The notes beneath the pieces were generated by a model that was not told the DNA's origin, did not search any database, and saw nothing but the letters and a program-made list of their open reading frames with translations. A stretch of DNA of 64,000 bases from positions 26,408 through 90,407 of the IMG/VR virus record IMGVR_UViG_3300036976_000011; one strand, 5' to 3'. Below, piece after piece: positions 14,906-62,944 of the stretch. The stretch is from a virus (Duplodnaviria > Caudoviricetes). The position numbers were made by a program, and so were the translations under genes. Within the stretch, counting starts at the first letter, position 1. Every line of letters begins with the position of its first letter.

Positions 14906-14996
14906 CGGTCCACCCTCGCGCCCACGGGGGAACCGAGAGACCGTAGTCTCTGGCGATTACCTGGTCACGGTCCACCCTCGCGCCCACGGGGGAACC
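14906..14996 (-). CRISPR. CRISPR mini-array: two identical 29-nt type I-E-like repeats and one 33-nt spacer
   Basis: Repeat GGTTCCCCCGTGGGCGCGAGGGTGGACCG at 14906-14934 and 14968-14996 (period 62); palindromic core and 8-nt 3' handle GTGGACCG as in I-E repeats; spacer TGACCAGGTAATCGCCAGAGACTACGGTCTCTC. Confidence 0.8.
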
Positions 14997-15163: not shown

Positions 15164-16645
15164 CTAGCCGAAGCTGGAAGGCTTGTGCCTGCCATTTGCA
15201 GATTTAGCATCCCTAAACGCCATCTGTAGGAGCGGACCCGCACCCGACCAGCTTTCTTTCGCGTGGTCCGCGTTTAGGGTATCATTCTCGACACATCTTG
15301 CTAGAAATGCCGAGTAAAGATCACGTTGAGCCTCTATGCCACATTCGCACTCGTGCCAACGTTGCGACAGAGGTTTTTTCTCTATCGTGCCGCAGCCGTG
15401 GCATATCTGGCTCAGTCTGGTACGATACGTCGAAAACTCCTCGACCCGACCGCCCGCGCCCTCAGTCTTGCGTCGCAACATCTCAACGAACGTACCCGGT
15501 GCGCGCTTCCCGACCGATCTACCATACTGGCGCTGAAAGGCCCGGTAGGACAACTTTTCGGTCTTGACAACGTTGCCCATCCCAAGCACGCGGTTGGCAA
15601 GCCGGCCGTGCAGGCTCTTGCGGTACTCGGCCTGCCGGCGCTGCAACTCGGCCAGTTTCGCTTCCGTCTTGAGCATACGTTTGGACTTGTTGCGTGGTCT
15701 CTTGTCCTTGATGGCGCGCCCCTTTTCGTCGTAGCAGTCGGGGTTATTGGCACGCCGTTGTCGGTCCAACTTGCGCTGCAAAATCCGTATCTCGTGCTCG
15801 ATGTCCTCAAGCTCTGCGCAGAATTGGACCAGAAAGGCGTCGTCCTCGCCTACTACTGCGACGGTGGACGGCCCAATGTCTAGGCCGACGACAGCGCCGT
15901 CAACTGTGGGATGTCGTTGTAGGGGATGGCCCTCTAGCACCAACTGGGCGTAGAACCGGTTGCGCCCGCTGATGACCTTGAGGATGATGCGCACGTATTT
16001 GACCCGACAACCGAGGCCGTGGGCGTGGGTTGGGTCGTCCCGGTCCACGACGGCGGGTATTTCCAGGTCGCGCCACTGAACGTAATTGCCCTTGTCCCGC
16101 CAGCGCAAGCCCTGCAAGTTGGTGATGTTCTCCACGCTGCGCACCTGGCCGTACCGTTTGAATCTTGGCTTGCCGCAAAGGTCGCAGCGCCGGGTCTCTT
16201 TGGGTTTCTTGCACCTTCGACCATTCTTGCACGGCCTGTCGGTCCCAAACCGGTAACGGTTGACGCTCGTCCAAACACGAGCCGTAACAGCCTTGACCTC
16301 TTGGCTGCCCAGGTGGTCACGAATCCAGGAGTGTGTAAACTGTGTCGCCCAACTCATCAAATCGTATTTGCGTATGCCCACGGCTGCATCCGCTTGACGA
16401 AAGGCTTCTACCCGCGCCTTGTATTGTGCTTTTTGAGTAACCGTGGCGTCTTTCCCGTTTCTGCCCCTGGGCATCTTGCAGGCACGTCGGAAAGCCTTGG
16501 ACTCGCGCAACAACTTCAACCGCTTCAGGCCCTCGCCCAATACGGCGTTGTGAACCTGGCGGGCGGTCTCAAAGCGCACCAGGAGTTTTTTTTCCTGACA
16601 CGGCGTTGTCTTTAATGGCAATTCTAAAATAAATGTCTTGCTCAT
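15164..16645 (-). CDS. tnpB: TnpB-family RNA-guided endonuclease (IS200/IS605 OrfB / Cas12f-like)
   Basis: RuvC-I VGLDIG, RuvC-II KTEKL, zinc ribbon CHGC..CEC, RuvC-III QRDLYSA (D-E-D intact); no tnpA nearby. Confidence 0.9.
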   Translation of the reverse strand: MSKTFILELPLKTTPCQEKKLLVRFETARQVHNAVLGEGLKRLKLLRESKAFRRACKMPRGRNGKDATVTQKAQYKARVEAFRQADAAVGIRKYDLMSWATQFTHSWIRDHLGSQEVKAVTARVWTSVNRYRFGTDRPCKNGRRCKKPKETRRCDLCGKPRFKRYGQVRSVENITNLQGLRWRDKGNYVQWRDLEIPAVVDRDDPTHAHGLGCRVKYVRIILKVISGRNRFYAQLVLEGHPLQRHPTVDGAVVGLDIGPSTVAVVGEDDAFLVQFCAELEDIEHEIRILQRKLDRQRRANNPDCYDEKGRAIKDKRPRNKSKRMLKTEAKLAELQRRQAEYRKSLHGRLANRVLGMGNVVKTEKLSYRAFQRQYGRSVGKRAPGTFVEMLRRKTEGAGGRVEEFSTYRTRLSQICHGCGTIEKKPLSQRWHECECGIEAQRDLYSAFLARCVENDTLNADHAKESWSGAGPLLQMAFRDAKSANGRHKPSSFG

Positions 16646-16649
16646 TCTC

Positions 16650-16705
16650 TGGCCTAACAAAAAACCAACCCCGTCGGTGCTTGTTCCTGTCACAGAGTCA
16701 AGCCG
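16650..16705 (-). terminator. intrinsic terminator-like hairpin upstream of tnpB start
   Basis: CCAACCCCG/CGGGGTTGG 9-bp stem followed by TTTTTTG. Confidence 0.5.
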
Positions 16706-18593: not shown

Positions 18594-18896
18594 TCATAGG
18601 TCCCAATTCTCCACCACGCGGTCCCAGTCCACCTCGTCTGGCGAGGCGTCCGACTGGCCTGCGTCCAGTAAGCCGGTGAACTGCTCCTGTATCATTGGCA
18701 AGCGCAAGATGTTCACGCCATTCTTTTCTATGCCAGCCATGAGCGTCGGTACACCTTTGATGAACGCCGTAATCGCGCAACTTGCACACACGCCGTCTGG
18801 TGTGGACGAGCGTTTGAGCAATCTCGTATTGGGGCTGTCGTCCGAGGGCGCGACCCGGCAGGGGGTCCCACAGCGGGAACAGGTTGTTTCATTCAT
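18594..18896 (-). CDS. Cys-rich hypothetical protein
   Basis: CSRC..C and CASC motifs. Confidence 0.5.
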   Translation of the reverse strand: MNETTCSRCGTPCRVAPSDDSPNTRLLKRSSTPDGVCASCAITAFIKGVPTLMAGIEKNGVNILRLPMIQEQFTGLLDAGQSDASPDEVDWDRVVENWDL

Positions 18897-19743
18897 TTGT
18901 TTGTTCTCCTCTATAAGTTAGGTCCATCGCGGCCTGCGTCACTGTCACCTCGTTGTTCTCCGGTATAGACCAGAACGACGGCTGGCGCAGCCGGTCCACG
19001 GCGATGCGGCAGTACTCCTCGCTGATTTCTATGCCGACGCAACGGCGTCCCTCGTTCTGTGCGGCAACCAGGGTTGTGCCTGAGCCGCAGGTATTGTCCA
19101 GAATGATGTCACCTGGATTGGTGTAGGTACGGACAAGGATAGACAGGAGCTTCACTGGCTTTTGCGTATGATGTAAAACAGGTCTGTCTTTCTTAAAGTA
19201 CAGAACGCTACGCAAGTAAGTGCCATCTTTTGGATATGTTATCTGCTTGGTTGGGTTAGGACGATAGCTGATATCATTTAGCCGCTTTGACTTTTCTCTA
19301 TACTTTGTTGTCTCTGCTAGAGTTGCTTTTCTGCCAGAAAAAACAATTGGATTGTAAGTGGCCTTATTCTTTGCATTAGGATGATAGTAGCGTGATGAAA
19401 ATACAAGTATGCTTTCATGTACATGATTTGGTCTGTGACCAGAGAGGATAAATGCTGCGCCACCGTCTTTCTCCCATATTAACTCATGCCTAAACCATTC
19501 CAAATTAGACATCACCAATTGACTCGTAAACGGTTGACTCCCAAACAACACTGCCAGATTGCTCAACCGCTTGCATTCTTTCCATAGTGGTTCTAGCGGA
19601 ATCACCGAATCCCACTTGCAGGATGTCACGCCATAGGGCCAATCTGATATGATAGCATTGAAAGGCCCGTCAAGGCGTGGCATGATCTCAAGGCAATCGC
19701 CCAAGTAGATTGTGATTCCGCCTTTTTGGTAATAGGGCTTCAT
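18889..19743 (-). CDS. DNA amino-methyltransferase (N4-C/N6-A, beta class)
   Basis: Catalytic DWPY (DPPY variant), H.TQKP, SAM-binding LDNTCGSGTT, GIEISEEY. Confidence 0.9.
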   Translation of the reverse strand: MKPYYQKGGITIYLGDCLEIMPRLDGPFNAIISDWPYGVTSCKWDSVIPLEPLWKECKRLSNLAVLFGSQPFTSQLVMSNLEWFRHELIWEKDGGAAFILSGHRPNHVHESILVFSSRYYHPNAKNKATYNPIVFSGRKATLAETTKYREKSKRLNDISYRPNPTKQITYPKDGTYLRSVLYFKKDRPVLHHTQKPVKLLSILVRTYTNPGDIILDNTCGSGTTLVAAQNEGRRCVGIEISEEYCRIAVDRLRQPSFWSIPENNEVTVTQAAMDLTYRGEQTNE

Positions 19744-56069: not shown

Positions 56070-59000
56070 TCACCTCCCCCCCCCCGCCTGCCGCGCAATC
56101 TCGTCCAAAATCACAGGCCGATACATTAGCCCCCAATCATCAGCAGGGTCATACCGGTAAAAGCAAATCCCCGTGACGGGCTGCGCGCCGGTTGCATTAT
56201 ACCGATCAAACTCCTTAACTGCCGCCTCTATCCAGGCAGCGTTGTCATCAAGCCAGCCAAGTTGTGTGTCGTCTATCCTCTGCGGGTTCACTTCGGTAAT
56301 GAATACTGGCAAATGTTGCAACGATGACTTGACCCACGCCAACTGATCTAGGTAGGTACGCAGATGCAAATACCGCCCAGTTAGCGGCGCGTCGCTAAAC
56401 TTTTCGTTAGACGCACACTCCGCAGGGTCGTTGGTCTGCGTTTTGGCATGCAACAAGATTGCATCTATCCTGTCTACAGCGTTGTGCATTGTGTCAAGCC
56501 AGACTTTGGGATCTCCTGGCTGACCGAACTCTTGAGCCACGACATTGAACGGGTCAATTGCACCGGGGGCAAGCAGAATACCAGGAGTCACCCAATCCGC
56601 CACCCGGTTGTACAAATCAAGCACTCGCGCAGGCGTTAGCACCTCATCAGGATTGGGATACCCGCCCGCCCATTCCACCGGGTTGTTCCACTCATTAAAG
56701 AGCGTGTGTAAATAAATGCCTCGTGACTGGTTGATGGTGTGCGTTATCGCGTCCACCCACTGATTAGTCTGAGCGATTGGCGGCACGGTTCCAGTGCCCC
56801 CGTAGCCATAGCCCCATCGGGCAATGACTTTGATACCCACCTGTTCAAATCTGGTCACGTCTATCGGCTCAACAGTATCGCGAACAGCCCTGTGAATGAG
56901 CAGGTAGCCTTGAATGCCTTGGTTGCGCATCCAATCCCCGCCCGCGTCATCGTGCATGCCCAGAACGACCGGCGTCCGGGGTGCATCATCCCAGTCAATC
57001 AAAATCTCCGGGTCAGCATAGTGCTCCCCAATCTTCACGTCAATGTGAAGGTGATCGCCGGTAGAATTGCCCGTGTTATCTGGCTCACCTATCACAGCGC
57101 CACTTGAGACAAAATCGCCAATCTGCACATAAGTGCCGCCGTCTACGAGATGCGCGTAGCGGATTTGCATATTTTTGCCATCTGGCAATGTGGTAAGTGT
57201 CTTAATCTGATGCCCGAACCATTCCTCTGAAAGATCGCGGCCAACAAAGATAACTTTCCCGTCATGTGCAGCAAGGACGTGGTCCCCGTGCACCGCGTGG
57301 GACGCTCGTAGGTCTAGCCCGTTGTGATAATAGGTCTCACGGTCAACGCCAAATTCGCTGGTGATATGCGCAGGCCGATGGGTCGTGGGATAAGCCAGGC
57401 TCAATCCCCGCGCCTTGAGAAGCGACGCCAGCACCCGCCCCAGTAACTGATACTCATTCCCGCCGTCTGCCGGCAGGTAGCGCACGCCAGGATAGTGTTG
57501 CTCGAAAAACGCTTGCAGACCATCAGTCCAGTTTGTTGACTGCACCGCAATAACCGCTCTATCGTCCAGGTCTCCAATACCCGCGTCATCGGCACTACCA
57601 CCAACAGTAGGACGAAAATCATCAAAGAAGCGTTCGCATAGCGTGGACGCTAGACCACCGTCCCCGTATGGCGGCAGCAAAACGTAGGAGCGTTGGTATT
57701 GCTCCCTGGGCTGTCCCCGACCCGACGAGGGTGGGTCAATTGGTGGTGGTTCAATGTCACCAACGCTCACAGCATAGTCAATCAACTCAGGATAGTCAAT
57801 ACCATAGTCATGCGACGGCCACCATTGTGAGTCAGTCGGAGCGCCCAGCGTGAACGGCGTCACGCCAAGCACGTAGTCGTCCTGGCGTGCCTTGCTATCA
57901 TACCACGCGAATCTTTCAACAACTTCCTCAGTCGTGATGTCGTGATTGCCGCCGTGGGTACGAAATTCCGAGATGATAAGCGGAACAACCTCGCCGCGCT
58001 GCTGCAATAGATGGTATAGGTAACGATAGCGGAAGCAAAGCGCACCAGCCCCAGGTACGATCGGCGAGCCTGGTATCTGATCACCCCACCACTTATCAAT
58101 AGGATCGTCGTCAAAGACGCCCTCATGCAGTGCCAGGGCATGGCCGCCAGCCTTGGCGCGTGCAAACACATCCGTCTCACACATCTCTACCATTTCTGAC
58201 CATTCTGGCGTGCCCGCGTTCAAGGAAAACAGCGCGAGCTTGACACCATGAGTGTCTGCGATGTTCATACAATGAATCATCAGACGTGAAAGTTGTGCGT
58301 AGCCAAAGTCCCCTGGCGGGTCTGGCTCGTTACACACCTCCCAATAATCTACTACATTGTGCAACTCGGGATGATGGTTCAATTTGTCCAAAATGAACGC
58401 CATGAGGTCCTGAGCCATCTCTGTCAGGTTGGTGTCAGGATCTTCAACGTCCTGACATCCCTCAGTTTGGCTAGCGATTCTGGCAACAATGACCGAATCC
58501 GGGCAAATCTCCCTCGCCTCTGCCAACCAACCCAGGTCTGACACAGCCTTGATGACGGCTGGCTGACCGCCTCTGTCACGCCATTCGCGTAATAGATCCA
58601 GCGTATCGCCTGCGGGTGACGCCGCGTTGATACTGTGCGTGCCCAAGCGAGAGCCGCCCACAGGCTCAGGCAATGGTTCGGGCACGTCAACTTGACGCAA
58701 TTCCCACTTGTCACAGAACAGCCCGTTGTTCGACAGTGGAAAGGGGAGCATAAAGCGCACTTCTACCTTGCATTGAATCGAAGGCGCAGTAAATCGGTAC
58801 GTCACGGTTTGCAGACGTTGATCTATTGGCGTATCCTGTGGCGGGTTCGCGTCTTGCCAATCGTTGGGTTCGTCATTGATTGCGAAGCGGATACGCACAG
58901 CACGAGGGTCATCTGCAAATATTTTCTGCCCTTCCTCGTACCCCGCTACCACGTCAGGGTAGAAGCGAATGGTAAAGTCGTAATCTCGCCCTGGCGCAAA

Positions 59001-59291
59001 TCCGTGAATCACCTGGTAAAATGTGAACAGGAGTGAACCGTTGCCCTTGAATGGCTTGAGACAATAGTCACCAGCAAGGATGAATAGGTCCTGCTCGTGT
59101 GGCGGCAGGTGCTCACGAGGCAACACGCGCACCTCTGGGCGCACGAATCTGGCCCAGGGATTAGGGTCTATCGGATTGTCTATTGACTCATCAGCATACC
59201 AGAACCCCCACTCCGCAGGGATTTGCAATTCAGGAATGCCATCAGGATGCCACCAGCCGCCCTCGAAGCTCGCGTTGTTTAGTTTGTTCAT
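56070..59291 (-). CDS. modular lysin: beta-sandwich, GH-A barrel, M23 peptidase, second GH-A barrel
   Basis: CNEP..ISE and FNEWN..ITE clan GH-A pairs; M23 HNGLD, YAHL, TGNSTGDHLH. Confidence 0.75.
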   Translation of the reverse strand: MNKLNNASFEGGWWHPDGIPELQIPAEWGFWYADESIDNPIDPNPWARFVRPEVRVLPREHLPPHEQDLFILAGDYCLKPFKGNGSLLFTFYQVIHGFAPGRDYDFTIRFYPDVVAGYEEGQKIFADDPRAVRIRFAINDEPNDWQDANPPQDTPIDQRLQTVTYRFTAPSIQCKVEVRFMLPFPLSNNGLFCDKWELRQVDVPEPLPEPVGGSRLGTHSINAASPAGDTLDLLREWRDRGGQPAVIKAVSDLGWLAEAREICPDSVIVARIASQTEGCQDVEDPDTNLTEMAQDLMAFILDKLNHHPELHNVVDYWEVCNEPDPPGDFGYAQLSRLMIHCMNIADTHGVKLALFSLNAGTPEWSEMVEMCETDVFARAKAGGHALALHEGVFDDDPIDKWWGDQIPGSPIVPGAGALCFRYRYLYHLLQQRGEVVPLIISEFRTHGGNHDITTEEVVERFAWYDSKARQDDYVLGVTPFTLGAPTDSQWWPSHDYGIDYPELIDYAVSVGDIEPPPIDPPSSGRGQPREQYQRSYVLLPPYGDGGLASTLCERFFDDFRPTVGGSADDAGIGDLDDRAVIAVQSTNWTDGLQAFFEQHYPGVRYLPADGGNEYQLLGRVLASLLKARGLSLAYPTTHRPAHITSEFGVDRETYYHNGLDLRASHAVHGDHVLAAHDGKVIFVGRDLSEEWFGHQIKTLTTLPDGKNMQIRYAHLVDGGTYVQIGDFVSSGAVIGEPDNTGNSTGDHLHIDVKIGEHYADPEILIDWDDAPRTPVVLGMHDDAGGDWMRNQGIQGYLLIHRAVRDTVEPIDVTRFEQVGIKVIARWGYGYGGTGTVPPIAQTNQWVDAITHTINQSRGIYLHTLFNEWNNPVEWAGGYPNPDEVLTPARVLDLYNRVADWVTPGILLAPGAIDPFNVVAQEFGQPGDPKVWLDTMHNAVDRIDAILLHAKTQTNDPAECASNEKFSDAPLTGRYLHLRTYLDQLAWVKSSLQHLPVFITEVNPQRIDDTQLGWLDDNAAWIEAAVKEFDRYNATGAQPVTGICFYRYDPADDWGLMYRPVILDEIARQAGGGR

Positions 59292-59766: not shown

Positions 59767-59979
59767 CTAACTCTCCCACGGCAACTTGCTCCCCTGCTCT
59801 GCTAATTGGCAAAGCGCGCAGTACCAACACGACACAAGCCACAAATTCTCTAACGTGCGTGGTATTTCCATAATTCGCTCAGTATACATAGCTTCATAGG
59901 ATGTCATGCCGAATAGTCGTTCAGAGTCCTCTATAACCTTTTCCGGCTCAGAAAGTTCAAGTGGATAAGTGAATTGCAT
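59767..59979 (-). CDS. hypothetical protein
   Basis: ATG directly follows the read-through TAG of the MuF gene. Confidence 0.45.
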   Translation of the reverse strand: MQFTYPLELSEPEKVIEDSERLFGMTSYEAMYTERIMEIPRTLENLWLVSCWYCALCQLAEQGSKLPWES

Positions 59980-61059
59980 CTAGCTCTCCCACGGCAACGT
60001 CCCCACCACCGGCGAGGTCGTGCAACGTCAGCGCGGGTGCGCTGGCTCCATTGGCGGCCCTGCGCCAAAACCAACGCTGCCATCTCTGTTGTGCCAGACA
60101 TTACTATCCAGCGCCGCTATCTGCCCGTGAAGCGGGCGGCAGATTTCCTTACAAACCCACTCGTCACGGGCCGTGTTCCAAACTCGCCCAACGACAATGC
60201 CGCTTTCCTTCCAAACAATATAGTTGCCATTAGCATACGCGCTCGTTGCCTCAGTAGAGGCTATCAAGTCGGCACGTTGGCGACCAAACAAACTGCTTAG
60301 CCGCTTGACTAGCGCAGGGTAATCTTCGTGACTCTCTACCCACGATGCAAGATTTTCGCGTAGTGCTCTCCTCTCTGTCCTAGACAGTCCTTTCGCAAGC
60401 TGTCCCGCGTACTTGCGTGCCCAGGCAGCGACTTCGACATTGACTGTGCTAGCGTCCAGTCCCAGGGCATAATCGGTGAACATGGACTCTATCGCCAGGT
60501 CTGACCCAATCGTCGCGCCGCTTTCCATGAACGGAATGAGCGCCGCTGCCGTTGCCGCTGTCCATAGCGCCCACTGCGATGTGTCCTTTGCCAGTCGCTC
60601 GCCATTGCGCGCTATCTCGTCAAGCTGCGCAGCAATAAGGTATTCTTGCATCTCCGATGCTTGTACATCCCAATTGGCGAGAAGCGCGGATTGCAGGTCA
60701 CGCTCCCAGTCGGCGTAGAGTGCCCAGAGAGGTGAGGTCTCGGCTTGCTTGGTCTGTACAGTAACAACCTCGGCACGCACCCTGAGCACTTGCGCAGCGA
60801 GTTCCTGAGATTTCATTTGTCTCACTTTACCAACAAACATGGTCGGCGACCAGTTATCAATTTTTGGTATCTCTATTGGAATGTGCAATCCAGACAATGA
60901 TGCTGGTGTGTCCAGTCGTCGTTGACGCGCTTCGCTAGTAATGGGTACGAATGGCATATCAATTAGTGGTATTGACTCTCTCTTGCTCTCGCTCATGCCT
61001 ACATCAATACTGCGCCGTGCCTCTTGAGCCAACTTGTACCACCCCATCAAATGTACCAA
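59980..61059 (-). CDS. MuF/SPP1 gp7-like minor head protein with in-frame TGA at 60028-60030 (candidate selenocysteine)
   Basis: RADLIASTEATSAY, W.TARDEWVC..C.PLHG, then PAHPR-TGA-RCTTSPVV where the family has HPxCRC; read-through ends at TAG 59980-59982. Confidence 0.8.
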
Positions 61060-61468: not shown

Positions 61469-62944
61469 CTACGCCCACCTCTCAAATACCGCGCCCACTT
61501 GGTCAACCGTCTTTGCGCCTTCAAGTGCTGCCTCAATCTGCGCCCTAGTGTACGTCGGTATCGTGTCACTGATAAATTGTCGCTTGCCCGCGTCACGCCC
61601 CTTTGCCGCTTCCTTCAGTGCTACCTTGCGCCAGGTGCGCAAGTCCCTACGCCAGATCTTCTCTGTCGGCGTCTCTTGGACCATTTCGTACTCAGGCAGT
61701 TCCGGCTCATCTTCCGGTACAGGCAGCCCCATCGCCATTGTCTGATTCAGTGCAGGCATAAGGCCGACCAGGGTCTCACCCAAAGCGCCGCCAAGGGGTT
61801 TCTTGCCTTGCGACTCACGCGCCTCGTCTATCGTCATTACGTCTTTATGCGCCTCATATTCTTGTAGGATAAGCTCACGGTCTTGTGGCACGATGTTGTC
61901 CGCCTGAACCACCAAGTCCTCGTCGTAGTACCGATCCACAACCTGCGCGTCAACTTCTTCGGCCTGATAGTCCAGCGCAGGCTGCACCGTGTCTCGCATC
62001 ACGATAAGTTCAGCCGTGGCGGCCACGTTACGCGAAGCATCTTTAGCCCAGTAGCCCGCCGGGATACCGAATACACGATCAATGGTCTCGCGGTTCATCC
62101 CAATACCTGCTAGAAATTCCATGTCTTTTTGTGGCAGACCAATGACTTCAACGCTCAGATCATCAGCGCGCCCAAAAGCTGAGCGGCGGTTTGACCCACC
62201 AAACCGCTCCACAAACTGCTCGCGTAGACGCTGAAAATCGACATCTGACGTAGACGCTGGCACTGAAATAATGGCCGTTGGTATCGCGTTCTGCTTATCG
62301 AAAAAATTGGTATTCCACGACCACATGGCTGTATCACTTTGCACTTGTAGCCGTAGAGCAGATAGCGGCGCGAGACCGGCTAGTGGGTCAAATGGATTGG
62401 CGAGCCGAAAGTGACACACCATCTCAACGGGAAGCGTCTTGCGCATAGGTTCATAAAAATAACCCGCGAGAACATCATTGCTCCCACGCCTGGTCTTGAC
62501 TGGGCGCACGTCACGCGCCGGGAGCGGCCATATCTCCACTAATTCATCTTTGGCATTGCAAGCTAGCCACCAATAGGCGTTACCGTCTAGGTTGCGCCAC
62601 ATCGAGGTATAGGAGCGTAGGAACGAACCAGACATGAGCGGGTTGGGACGCTGAAGCAACATTTCCAGTGGGTGGTCTGTCACCGGCTCCAGCTCGCCGC
62701 CAGCGCCCTTTGCCATCACGTGCAAGCCAGCCTGAGACTCTTTGCGAGCTAGCAAATTGATGTCACTGTAGACCCACGCGCAGGCCATTGCTTGTTCCTG
62801 CAATTTGCGGCCATCCAAGTCATCGTCAGCAGCAACGCGATGATATTCAAGGCCGCTAAAGTCGTCACGGTAGACGTAGGCAGGGCGGTTTTGCTTGATT
62901 TGCAGACCAGCCTTTGCCAGAATTGAGTCAAGGACAGTTGTCAT
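61469..62944 (-). CDS. portal protein (HK97-like)
   Basis: LL.RPNPLMSG..L, GNAYW, GLAPLSAL, NFF..NAIP, MEFL....NRETIDRVFGIP. Confidence 0.9.
   Translation of the reverse strand: MTTVLDSILAKAGLQIKQNRPAYVYRDDFSGLEYHRVAADDDLDGRKLQEQAMACAWVYSDINLLARKESQAGLHVMAKGAGGELEPVTDHPLEMLLQRPNPLMSGSFLRSYTSMWRNLDGNAYWWLACNAKDELVEIWPLPARDVRPVKTRRGSNDVLAGYFYEPMRKTLPVEMVCHFRLANPFDPLAGLAPLSALRLQVQSDTAMWSWNTNFFDKQNAIPTAIISVPASTSDVDFQRLREQFVERFGGSNRRSAFGRADDLSVEVIGLPQKDMEFLAGIGMNRETIDRVFGIPAGYWAKDASRNVAATAELIVMRDTVQPALDYQAEEVDAQVVDRYYDEDLVVQADNIVPQDRELILQEYEAHKDVMTIDEARESQGKKPLGGALGETLVGLMPALNQTMAMGLPVPEDEPELPEYEMVQETPTEKIWRRDLRTWRKVALKEAAKGRDAGKRQFISDTIPTYTRAQIEAALEGAKTVDQVGAVFERWA

Follow-up and report, generated by a model that had tools for sequence, protein, structure and literature searches.

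In bacterial genes that insert selenocysteine (Sec) by way of SelB, of which E. coli fdhF is the prototype, the UGA codon aligns with a Cys of homologous proteins, Sec and Cys forms alternate patchily among relatives, and a hairpin, the SECIS element, lies in frame directly 3' of the UGA and carries a small apical loop with G-G/U (PMC13188914). The consensus for this bacterial hairpin (bSECIS) has a loop of 3-9 nt with a G in its two leading positions and an upper stem of 4-16 bp, at a spacing of 16-37 nt and with a minimum free energy (MFE) of at most -7.5 kcal/mol (PMC13188914, Fig. 2). Viral Sec recoding has been noted (PMC8310308), and the 2026 review of the prokaryotic selenoproteome from which the consensus is taken never mentions phages or viruses (PMC13188914). 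A search of the literature yielded no report of a bacteriophage selenoprotein; phage papers mention selenocysteine only in passing. The selenoproteins known from prokaryotes are redox enzymes almost throughout. Among eukaryotic viruses, selenoproteins such as the poxvirus homologues of glutathione peroxidase borrow the Sec-insertion machinery of the host for a gene of the virus itself, as would the phage gene that we describe here. These proteins, however, are captured host oxidoreductases with a eukaryotic SECIS in the 3' untranslated region, whereas our gene belongs to a phage structural family and carries a bacterial-type hairpin in frame.

The gene encodes a minor head protein of the MuF type. 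Described members of this family (PF04233), such as gpF (gp30) of Mu and gp7 of SPP1, share with it a Pfam match above the cut-off, a position downstream of the portal gene, and the motifs D-E-x-V-C-x-x-C and HPxCRC-W-x-x-P-V, but all of them have Cys where the gene studied here has UGA. Judging from the sequence comparisons set out below, we consider it probable that this MuF protein is a selenoprotein, with Sec inserted at the UGA in a SelB-dependent manner. The recoding mechanism that we propose is the known bacterial one. Unlike the bacterial genes, however, this one is viral and belongs to a phage without Sec machinery; MuF proteins, unlike bacterial selenoproteins, are structural or ejected head proteins without known redox activity, and the Sec would sit in a cluster of four cysteines rather than in a recognised oxidoreductase active site.

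Results and Discussion

A MuF gene with an in-frame UGA at a conserved cysteine position

The DNA analysed here (hereafter, the window) is a stretch of 64,000 nt, bases 26408-90407 of a 90,407-bp IMG/VR virus record that has direct terminal repeats and is rated complete. The record originates from IMG sample 3300042731, which a preprint ranks among the largest IMG/M soil metagenomes. On the minus strand of the window, two small ORFs separate the portal protein gene (61469..62944; PF04860, E 2.9e-44) from the MuF gene downstream of it. Within the packaging module, the MuF gene thus occupies the position expected of a member of its family; synteny of portal and muf genes has been described as a rule (PMC5576092). 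The MuF ORF, also on the minus strand, spans 61059..60031 when read from a TTG, with ATG codons at 61047 and 60957 as alternative starts, and ends in PAHPR. From the ORF list, the translation, and the match to PF04233, we place the part of the gene upstream of the UGA at 60031..61047, while gene callers picked either M35 (P0003) or M5 (P0196) as the start.

The in-frame UGA (60028..60030, minus strand) is the candidate Sec codon; it stands where HPxCRC has its first Cys and corresponds to residue 344 of the read-through product. The sequence bore out the reading frame given in the earlier note, PAHPR-TGA-RC followed by a TAG that abuts the ATG at 59979: 15 codons lie between TGA and TAG (59983..60027), encoding in frame RC and then TTSPVVGTLPWES, and they include a conserved R-C, an S-P and a PWES tail. 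The TAG that would end the extended MuF frame (59980..59982) directly precedes the start codon of the next gene (59767..59979, minus strand), which encodes 70 aa and matches no Pfam family.

The read-through product matched the Pfam family Phage_Mu_F (PF04233) over residues 247-348 with 31.4 bits, above the cut-off of 29.6 (E 3.5e-7); a six-frame search of the genome with PF04233 gave 25.2 bits, under the cut-off. Among 66 aligned homologues, C303 and C307 were invariant, and H341, P342, C344, R345 and C346 were each at least 90% conserved; the column of the UGA contained an invariant Cys in 39 C-terminal domains. The window protein has C303 and C307 in a CxxxC spacing as well as H341, P342, R345 and C346, with the UGA at position 344. 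Because of this conservation, the UGA can be placed exactly on the first Cys of HPxCRC, in line with what the earlier note had claimed from the window alone, and the Cys that it replaces belongs to a set of four conserved cysteines together with C303, C307 and C346.

An AF2 model of the full protein had a pLDDT of 78.7 and was confident from about residue 110 on, and a model of the 75-residue Cys domain reached a pLDDT of 90.3. A sequence search of the PDB with the MuF protein returned no relative. Foldseek and VIA-align found only generic helical bundles for the full model (best Z 9.8, rmsd 5.5 Å over 155 residues), and among solved structures none resembled the Cys domain (best Z 2.9, rmsd 4.7 Å over 63 residues). 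Since no solved structure matches, we infer the role of the cluster from its CxxC...CxC pattern, which may point to binding of zinc or another metal, or else to a redox role.

UGA and Cys codons alternate among MuF relatives

A homologue search covering 5.8 billion proteins showed that both states occur close to the window protein. Among its closest homologues, P0006 and P0007 (both 46% identity) as well as P0008 (45%) end at exactly the same point as the window protein, while the very closest, P0004 (55%) and P0005 (45-47%), read H-P-R-C-R-C. Seven lineages, A to G, carry TGA at or beside the Cys column, with the stop codon of lineage D deduced from the end of the protein. Lineage A is the window MuF itself (TGA 60030-60028). 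Lineage B (L002-L007 and L088) has TGA at the Cys, and its sequence does not vary among six assemblies, which represent at least five JGI/ENA samples; the DNA of P0006, which belongs to it, reads H-P-G, TGA, R-C-W-Y-S-P-W-I-G-E-I-P-Q, TAG. Lineage D (P0008) ends at HPG. Lineages E (L128, from the window's own metagenome), F (L205/L226) and G (L207) all have TGA at the Cys and came from a scan with back-translated patterns, with F and G being MuF lineages outside the window's clade. In lineage C (L089, and P0197 from another run), TGA stands one residue later, after an extra Cys.

The arrangement in lineage C deserves separate description. Both sequences, L089:675-700 (Ga0180431_10076217) and P0197 (SRR14699967), read H-P-N-C, TGA, Q-P and then C-R-C-W, which yields a C-U-x-x-C arrangement in which all four canonical cysteines are retained. 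As the N-terminal two thirds of the lineage C protein are nearly identical to lineage B, its C-terminus looks recombinant.

Cys is carried in or beside the window's clade by P0004, P0005 and L008/L012, and the column is TGT or TGC at 61 further viral MuF loci. Hence, seven UGA lineages stand against more than 60 Cys homologues, with the Cys forms interleaved among them. The pattern scan covered 2.9 million viral contigs and, for TGA at the first Cys, recovered four MuF loci of three lineages, most of its other matches being due to chance. As a control, we placed the TGA on the second Cys of C-R-C instead; this mirror pattern gave 103 matches with no MuF gene among them. A scan with P-A-H-V-x-U-R-C gave 16 matches and again no MuF gene, and a scan of the viral contigs for close relatives with the single window protein found nothing.

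On a maximum-likelihood tree, lineage A was sister to the Cys-bearing P0004 (support 99/97), and lineage D grouped with the Cys-bearing P0005 and with B and C, the latter two as a pair (99/94). The subclade had a support of 100/98, and F and G were placed elsewhere. Across the branches with good support, no fewer than three switches between TGA and Cys are required. The tree was built from the last 260 residues of each protein; four rows with long C-terminal extensions (L013, L041, L042 and P0012) were mis-trimmed and form long branches, which leaves the clade of interest unaffected. Such a patchy distribution of Sec and Cys is the pattern that selenoprotein families show, and it therefore supports reading the UGA as a Sec codon. 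The alternation of Cys and TGA that the earlier note had proposed to look for is thus present, with TGA at or next to the Cys in B, C and E, a protein end there in D, and Cys in P0004, P0005 and L008/L012. Overall, this comparative evidence argues strongly for recoding.

Among the more distant relatives, one MuF homologue of 31% identity (L090:2787-3617; ERZ1292632, contig 'Hain-H43') contains an insertion of 277 residues. Its first residue is a Cys directly after H-P-Q, and its end, V-R-N, directly precedes C-R-C-W. The insertion looks like an intein whose site coincides exactly with the Cys replaced by UGA in the window, and it gave a weak match to the Pfam family Intein_splicing (E 0.0015, under the cut-off). 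Portal-MuF fusions also occur among the relatives of the window protein, as the MuF domain forms the C-terminal part of an open frame of 680-750 aa in four viral contigs (L008, L012, L024 and L027), and P0034 combines the portal and MuF Pfam families in one protein.

A SECIS-like hairpin recurs behind the UGA

The hairpin reported in the earlier note was recovered in the form described. It spans 59994..60023 on the minus strand and is made up of 12 bp, interrupted by one A-A mismatch and one bulged U, with an upper stem of 7 bp and a GGU apical loop at a spacing of 17 nt from the UGA; its energy is -14.2 to -15.0 kcal/mol. Its spacing, an energy under -7.5 kcal/mol, and every other item agree with the bSECIS model (PMC13188914), as they do for 19 of 63 homologues with a Cys codon. 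Compared with dinucleotide shuffles, the fold was not more stable in any of three cuts (z = +0.06, -0.27 and -0.89), and its weight therefore comes from the relatives and not from its energy. A search of 59900-60120 against Rfam, even at E 10, returned no match.

Hairpins lie behind the UGA in other lineages as well. The loop is UGGAU in lineage B (spacing 18 nt), GGU in E (20 nt) and GGUCUA in G (17 nt). Lineage F has a weak hairpin (MFE -7.9 kcal/mol) with the loop GUGUAG at 18 nt, and in lineage C a loop UGGGU lies at 27 nt on a stem whose -6.5 kcal/mol falls short of the threshold. In A, B, C and E, homologous codons (S/A-P ... G) form the hairpins in slightly different registers, with a Gly codon as the 3' arm, and this Gly codon is missing from the closest Cys relatives P0004, P0005 and L008. 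Compensatory pairs amount to a single case, an A-U in B against a G-C in C.

We quantified the association in a case-control comparison (Fisher test) with 63 distinct Cys-codon homologues as controls. Under a narrow definition (a stem of 4 or more contiguous bp, a loop start at 19-27, an early G in the loop, and an energy of at most -6 kcal/mol), a hairpin was found for 4 of 6 UGA genes and 3 of 63 Cys genes (p = 5.6e-4), with the range of loop starts chosen after the hairpins had been seen. Widening that range to 19-40, which covers the spacing of the published model, gave 5/6 against 4/63 (p = 6e-5). The published bSECIS model itself, applied to MFE folds, is permissive and separated the groups less clearly (4/6 versus 19/63, p = 0.09), while addition of a G-G/U loop gave 4/6 versus 12/63 (p = 0.023). 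Lineages A, B, C and E are related, and four of the six cases are therefore not independent in these statistics. The hairpin thus reappears after the UGA in other lineages and is missing from the closest Cys relatives, which answers the recurrence question raised by the earlier note with statistics that are moderate and not decisive; as evidence for Sec insertion, we regard these predicted structures as supportive but moderate.

UGA may also be read through by SelB-independent means. A near-cognate Trp or Cys tRNA would then decode it at low frequency and limit how much full-length MuF is made, and the hairpin would either slow the ribosome or have no function. UGA-C is a leaky termination context in E. 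coli. It is this context that is found in A, B, C and E, and programmed read-through of this kind would also fit a hairpin that is not unusually stable, a bSECIS model that 30% of the Cys controls pass, and the low copy number of MuF proteins. We nonetheless consider it rather unlikely, for several reasons. The UGA is confined to the nearly invariant Cys and absent from the Cys next to it (the 103 matches of the mirror scan), whereas an attenuator could use any codon; Trp at the Cys site should not be tolerated; lineages F and G have UGA-A; hairpins with a G-G/U loop at 17-20 nt go with UGA and not with a Cys codon; and the phage lacks a suppressor tRNA. For the Sec reading, in turn, the nature of the protein counts against it: almost all selenoproteins are oxidoreductases, and MuF is not known as one.

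The frame behind the UGA carries a coding signal

Differences among lineages B, C and E fall mostly on third codon positions. Over the 12 codons that follow the UGA, the three pairwise comparisons gave 3/2/7, 2/1/7 and 3/1/7 differences at positions 1/2/3, and each of them included 4-5 synonymous codon changes. Behind the UGA, all three lineages keep the motif R-C-W..S/A-P-W-I/V-G. Similarly, lineage A and the Cys-bearing P0004 are identical at 10 of the 15 residues after the UGA. To judge by these substitutions, the frame behind the UGA is under coding constraint, as it would be in a selenoprotein gene.

These data bear on a second alternative, namely that TGA is a true stop, that MuF is truncated just before C-R-C in a functional or decaying form, and that the downstream frame is a relic. 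Gene callers annotate the proteins in this manner (P0003, P0006, P0008, P0196 and P0197), and 15 open codons are by themselves not improbable. A relic is nevertheless unlikely, since the third-position bias and the intact in-frame motif persist across lineages that are only about 45% identical and that have all kept the TGA. A true stop would moreover remove the nearly invariant Arg-Cys, the extended frame ends exactly at the start of the next gene, and a search of 1.84 billion proteins found no other truncation at this point in its 150 best representatives. Overall, we judge a true stop improbable, and Sec insertion at the UGA remains the reading that we favour.

The codon in the assemblies and the genetic code of the phage

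As the genome is a metagenome assembly, the TGA might have arisen by an error in sequencing or assembly or belong to a rare defective variant in the population, the real codon being TGC or TGT. Over 13,973 bp that include the TGA, the window does not differ from the Logan assembly of SRR12150544 (L127; 100% identity), and a JGI contig of 90,349 bp encodes the same truncated MuF protein; the two probably share reads and therefore show only that two assemblers agree. Further support comes from the relatives: four other clade members have the TGA (with that of D deduced from its protein end), as do two unrelated MuF lineages, and lineage B is identical in its six assemblies from at least five samples. 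An error is thus very improbable, and both outcomes that the earlier note had named as fatal to its proposal, a sequencing error and a private nonsense mutation, found no support as far as could be checked, the latter because TGA recurs in other members of the clade and in the two unrelated lineages.

Stop-codon recoding is known in some uncultured phages. Phages that reassign a stop (TAG to Gln, TGA to Trp) resemble our phage in that an in-frame stop in a late structural gene is read through, but in them many genes are affected and a suppressor tRNA is usually present, whereas here a single codon is concerned. Despite this precedent, a genome-wide reassignment of TGA to Trp or Gly (code 4 or 25) can be set aside as having next to no likelihood, since TGA is the commonest stop (55 TGA, 34 TAG and 31 TAA in 120 non-overlapping ORFs that cover 87% of the genome), coding density is normal under table 11, no suppressor tRNA was found in a search of the 90-kb genome, and the MuF gene alone needs read-through. 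The genome thus shows none of the signature of an altered code (TGA rare as a stop, many TGA-interrupted genes, a suppressor tRNA), in keeping with the statement in the earlier note that TGA is an ordinary stop elsewhere. Its tRNAs are Tyr-GTA, Leu-TAG and Phe-GAA only. TGA is likewise an ordinary stop in the genes adjoining the other UGA lineages. Elsewhere in the window, an ORF on the minus strand (18889-19743) ends in TGA, and its frame stays open for 112 further codons, which may mark a second candidate for read-through or be due to chance.

A proposed model for selenocysteine insertion into a phage head protein

Both comparative tests, the alternation with Cys and the recurrence of the hairpin, gave the result that a selenoprotein predicts, and with both named refutations having failed, the proposal of Sec insertion in the earlier note is supported. 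We envision that, late in infection, SelB of the host with Sec-tRNA(Sec) would bind the hairpin a few nucleotides after the UGA and deliver selenocysteine to the ribosome at codon 344, whereupon translation would run for 15 further codons to the TAG abutting the next gene. Ribosomes that stop at the UGA would instead yield a protein in which the last Cys pair is missing. A capsid of SPP1 contains 1-2 copies of gp7 (PMC5576092), and a low-copy virion protein of this type could for that reason tolerate inefficient recoding.

More broadly, we are inclined to view MuF, on the basis of these sequences, as a phage selenoprotein family in which several lineages repeatedly swapped the first Cys of HPxCRC for Sec and evolved a SECIS of their own for the host's SelB. 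Selenium would then be placed in a low-copy, portal-associated and possibly ejected virion protein, Sec would form part of a four-Cys metal or redox centre in a protein that is not an oxidoreductase, and the production of full-length MuF would be tied to the selenium status of the host. If this holds true, phages would use the most specialised recoding machinery of their hosts for a structural gene, a family with Sec inside a four-Cys cluster would be added to the known selenoproteins, and gene callers would systematically truncate such MuF proteins. The UGA would also provide a sequence marker that predicts Sec use by the host of a phage.

The model presumes a host with selA, selB, selC and selD. 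A search of the 90-kb phage genome for tRNA-Sec, SelA, SelB and SelD found none of them. Several searches addressed the identity of that host. A profile of the MuF clade found no relative in contigs of cellular genomes, and the GenBank phage collection contained no match to MuF and only portal matches of 23-28% identity, spread across many host genera. An exact scan of 185,579 species-representative genomes with the 26-nt core of a CRISPR-like repeat of the phage gave 0 matches, and a look-up of the phage TnpB in the Atlas gave only vague hints of Chloroflexota or Cyanobacteriota.

The repeats lie at 14906-14996 of the window, where two identical copies of about 30 nt, resembling type I-E repeats, surround a 33-nt spacer. 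The pair adjoins the TnpB-like gene, which encodes 509 aa (15164-16693). Closer to the head genes, a protein of 1073 aa is encoded on the minus strand at 56070-59291, a few genes downstream of muf; it contains a Peptidase_M23 domain (E 1.3e-14) and is probably a virion-associated cell-wall hydrolase or a tape-measure-like protein.
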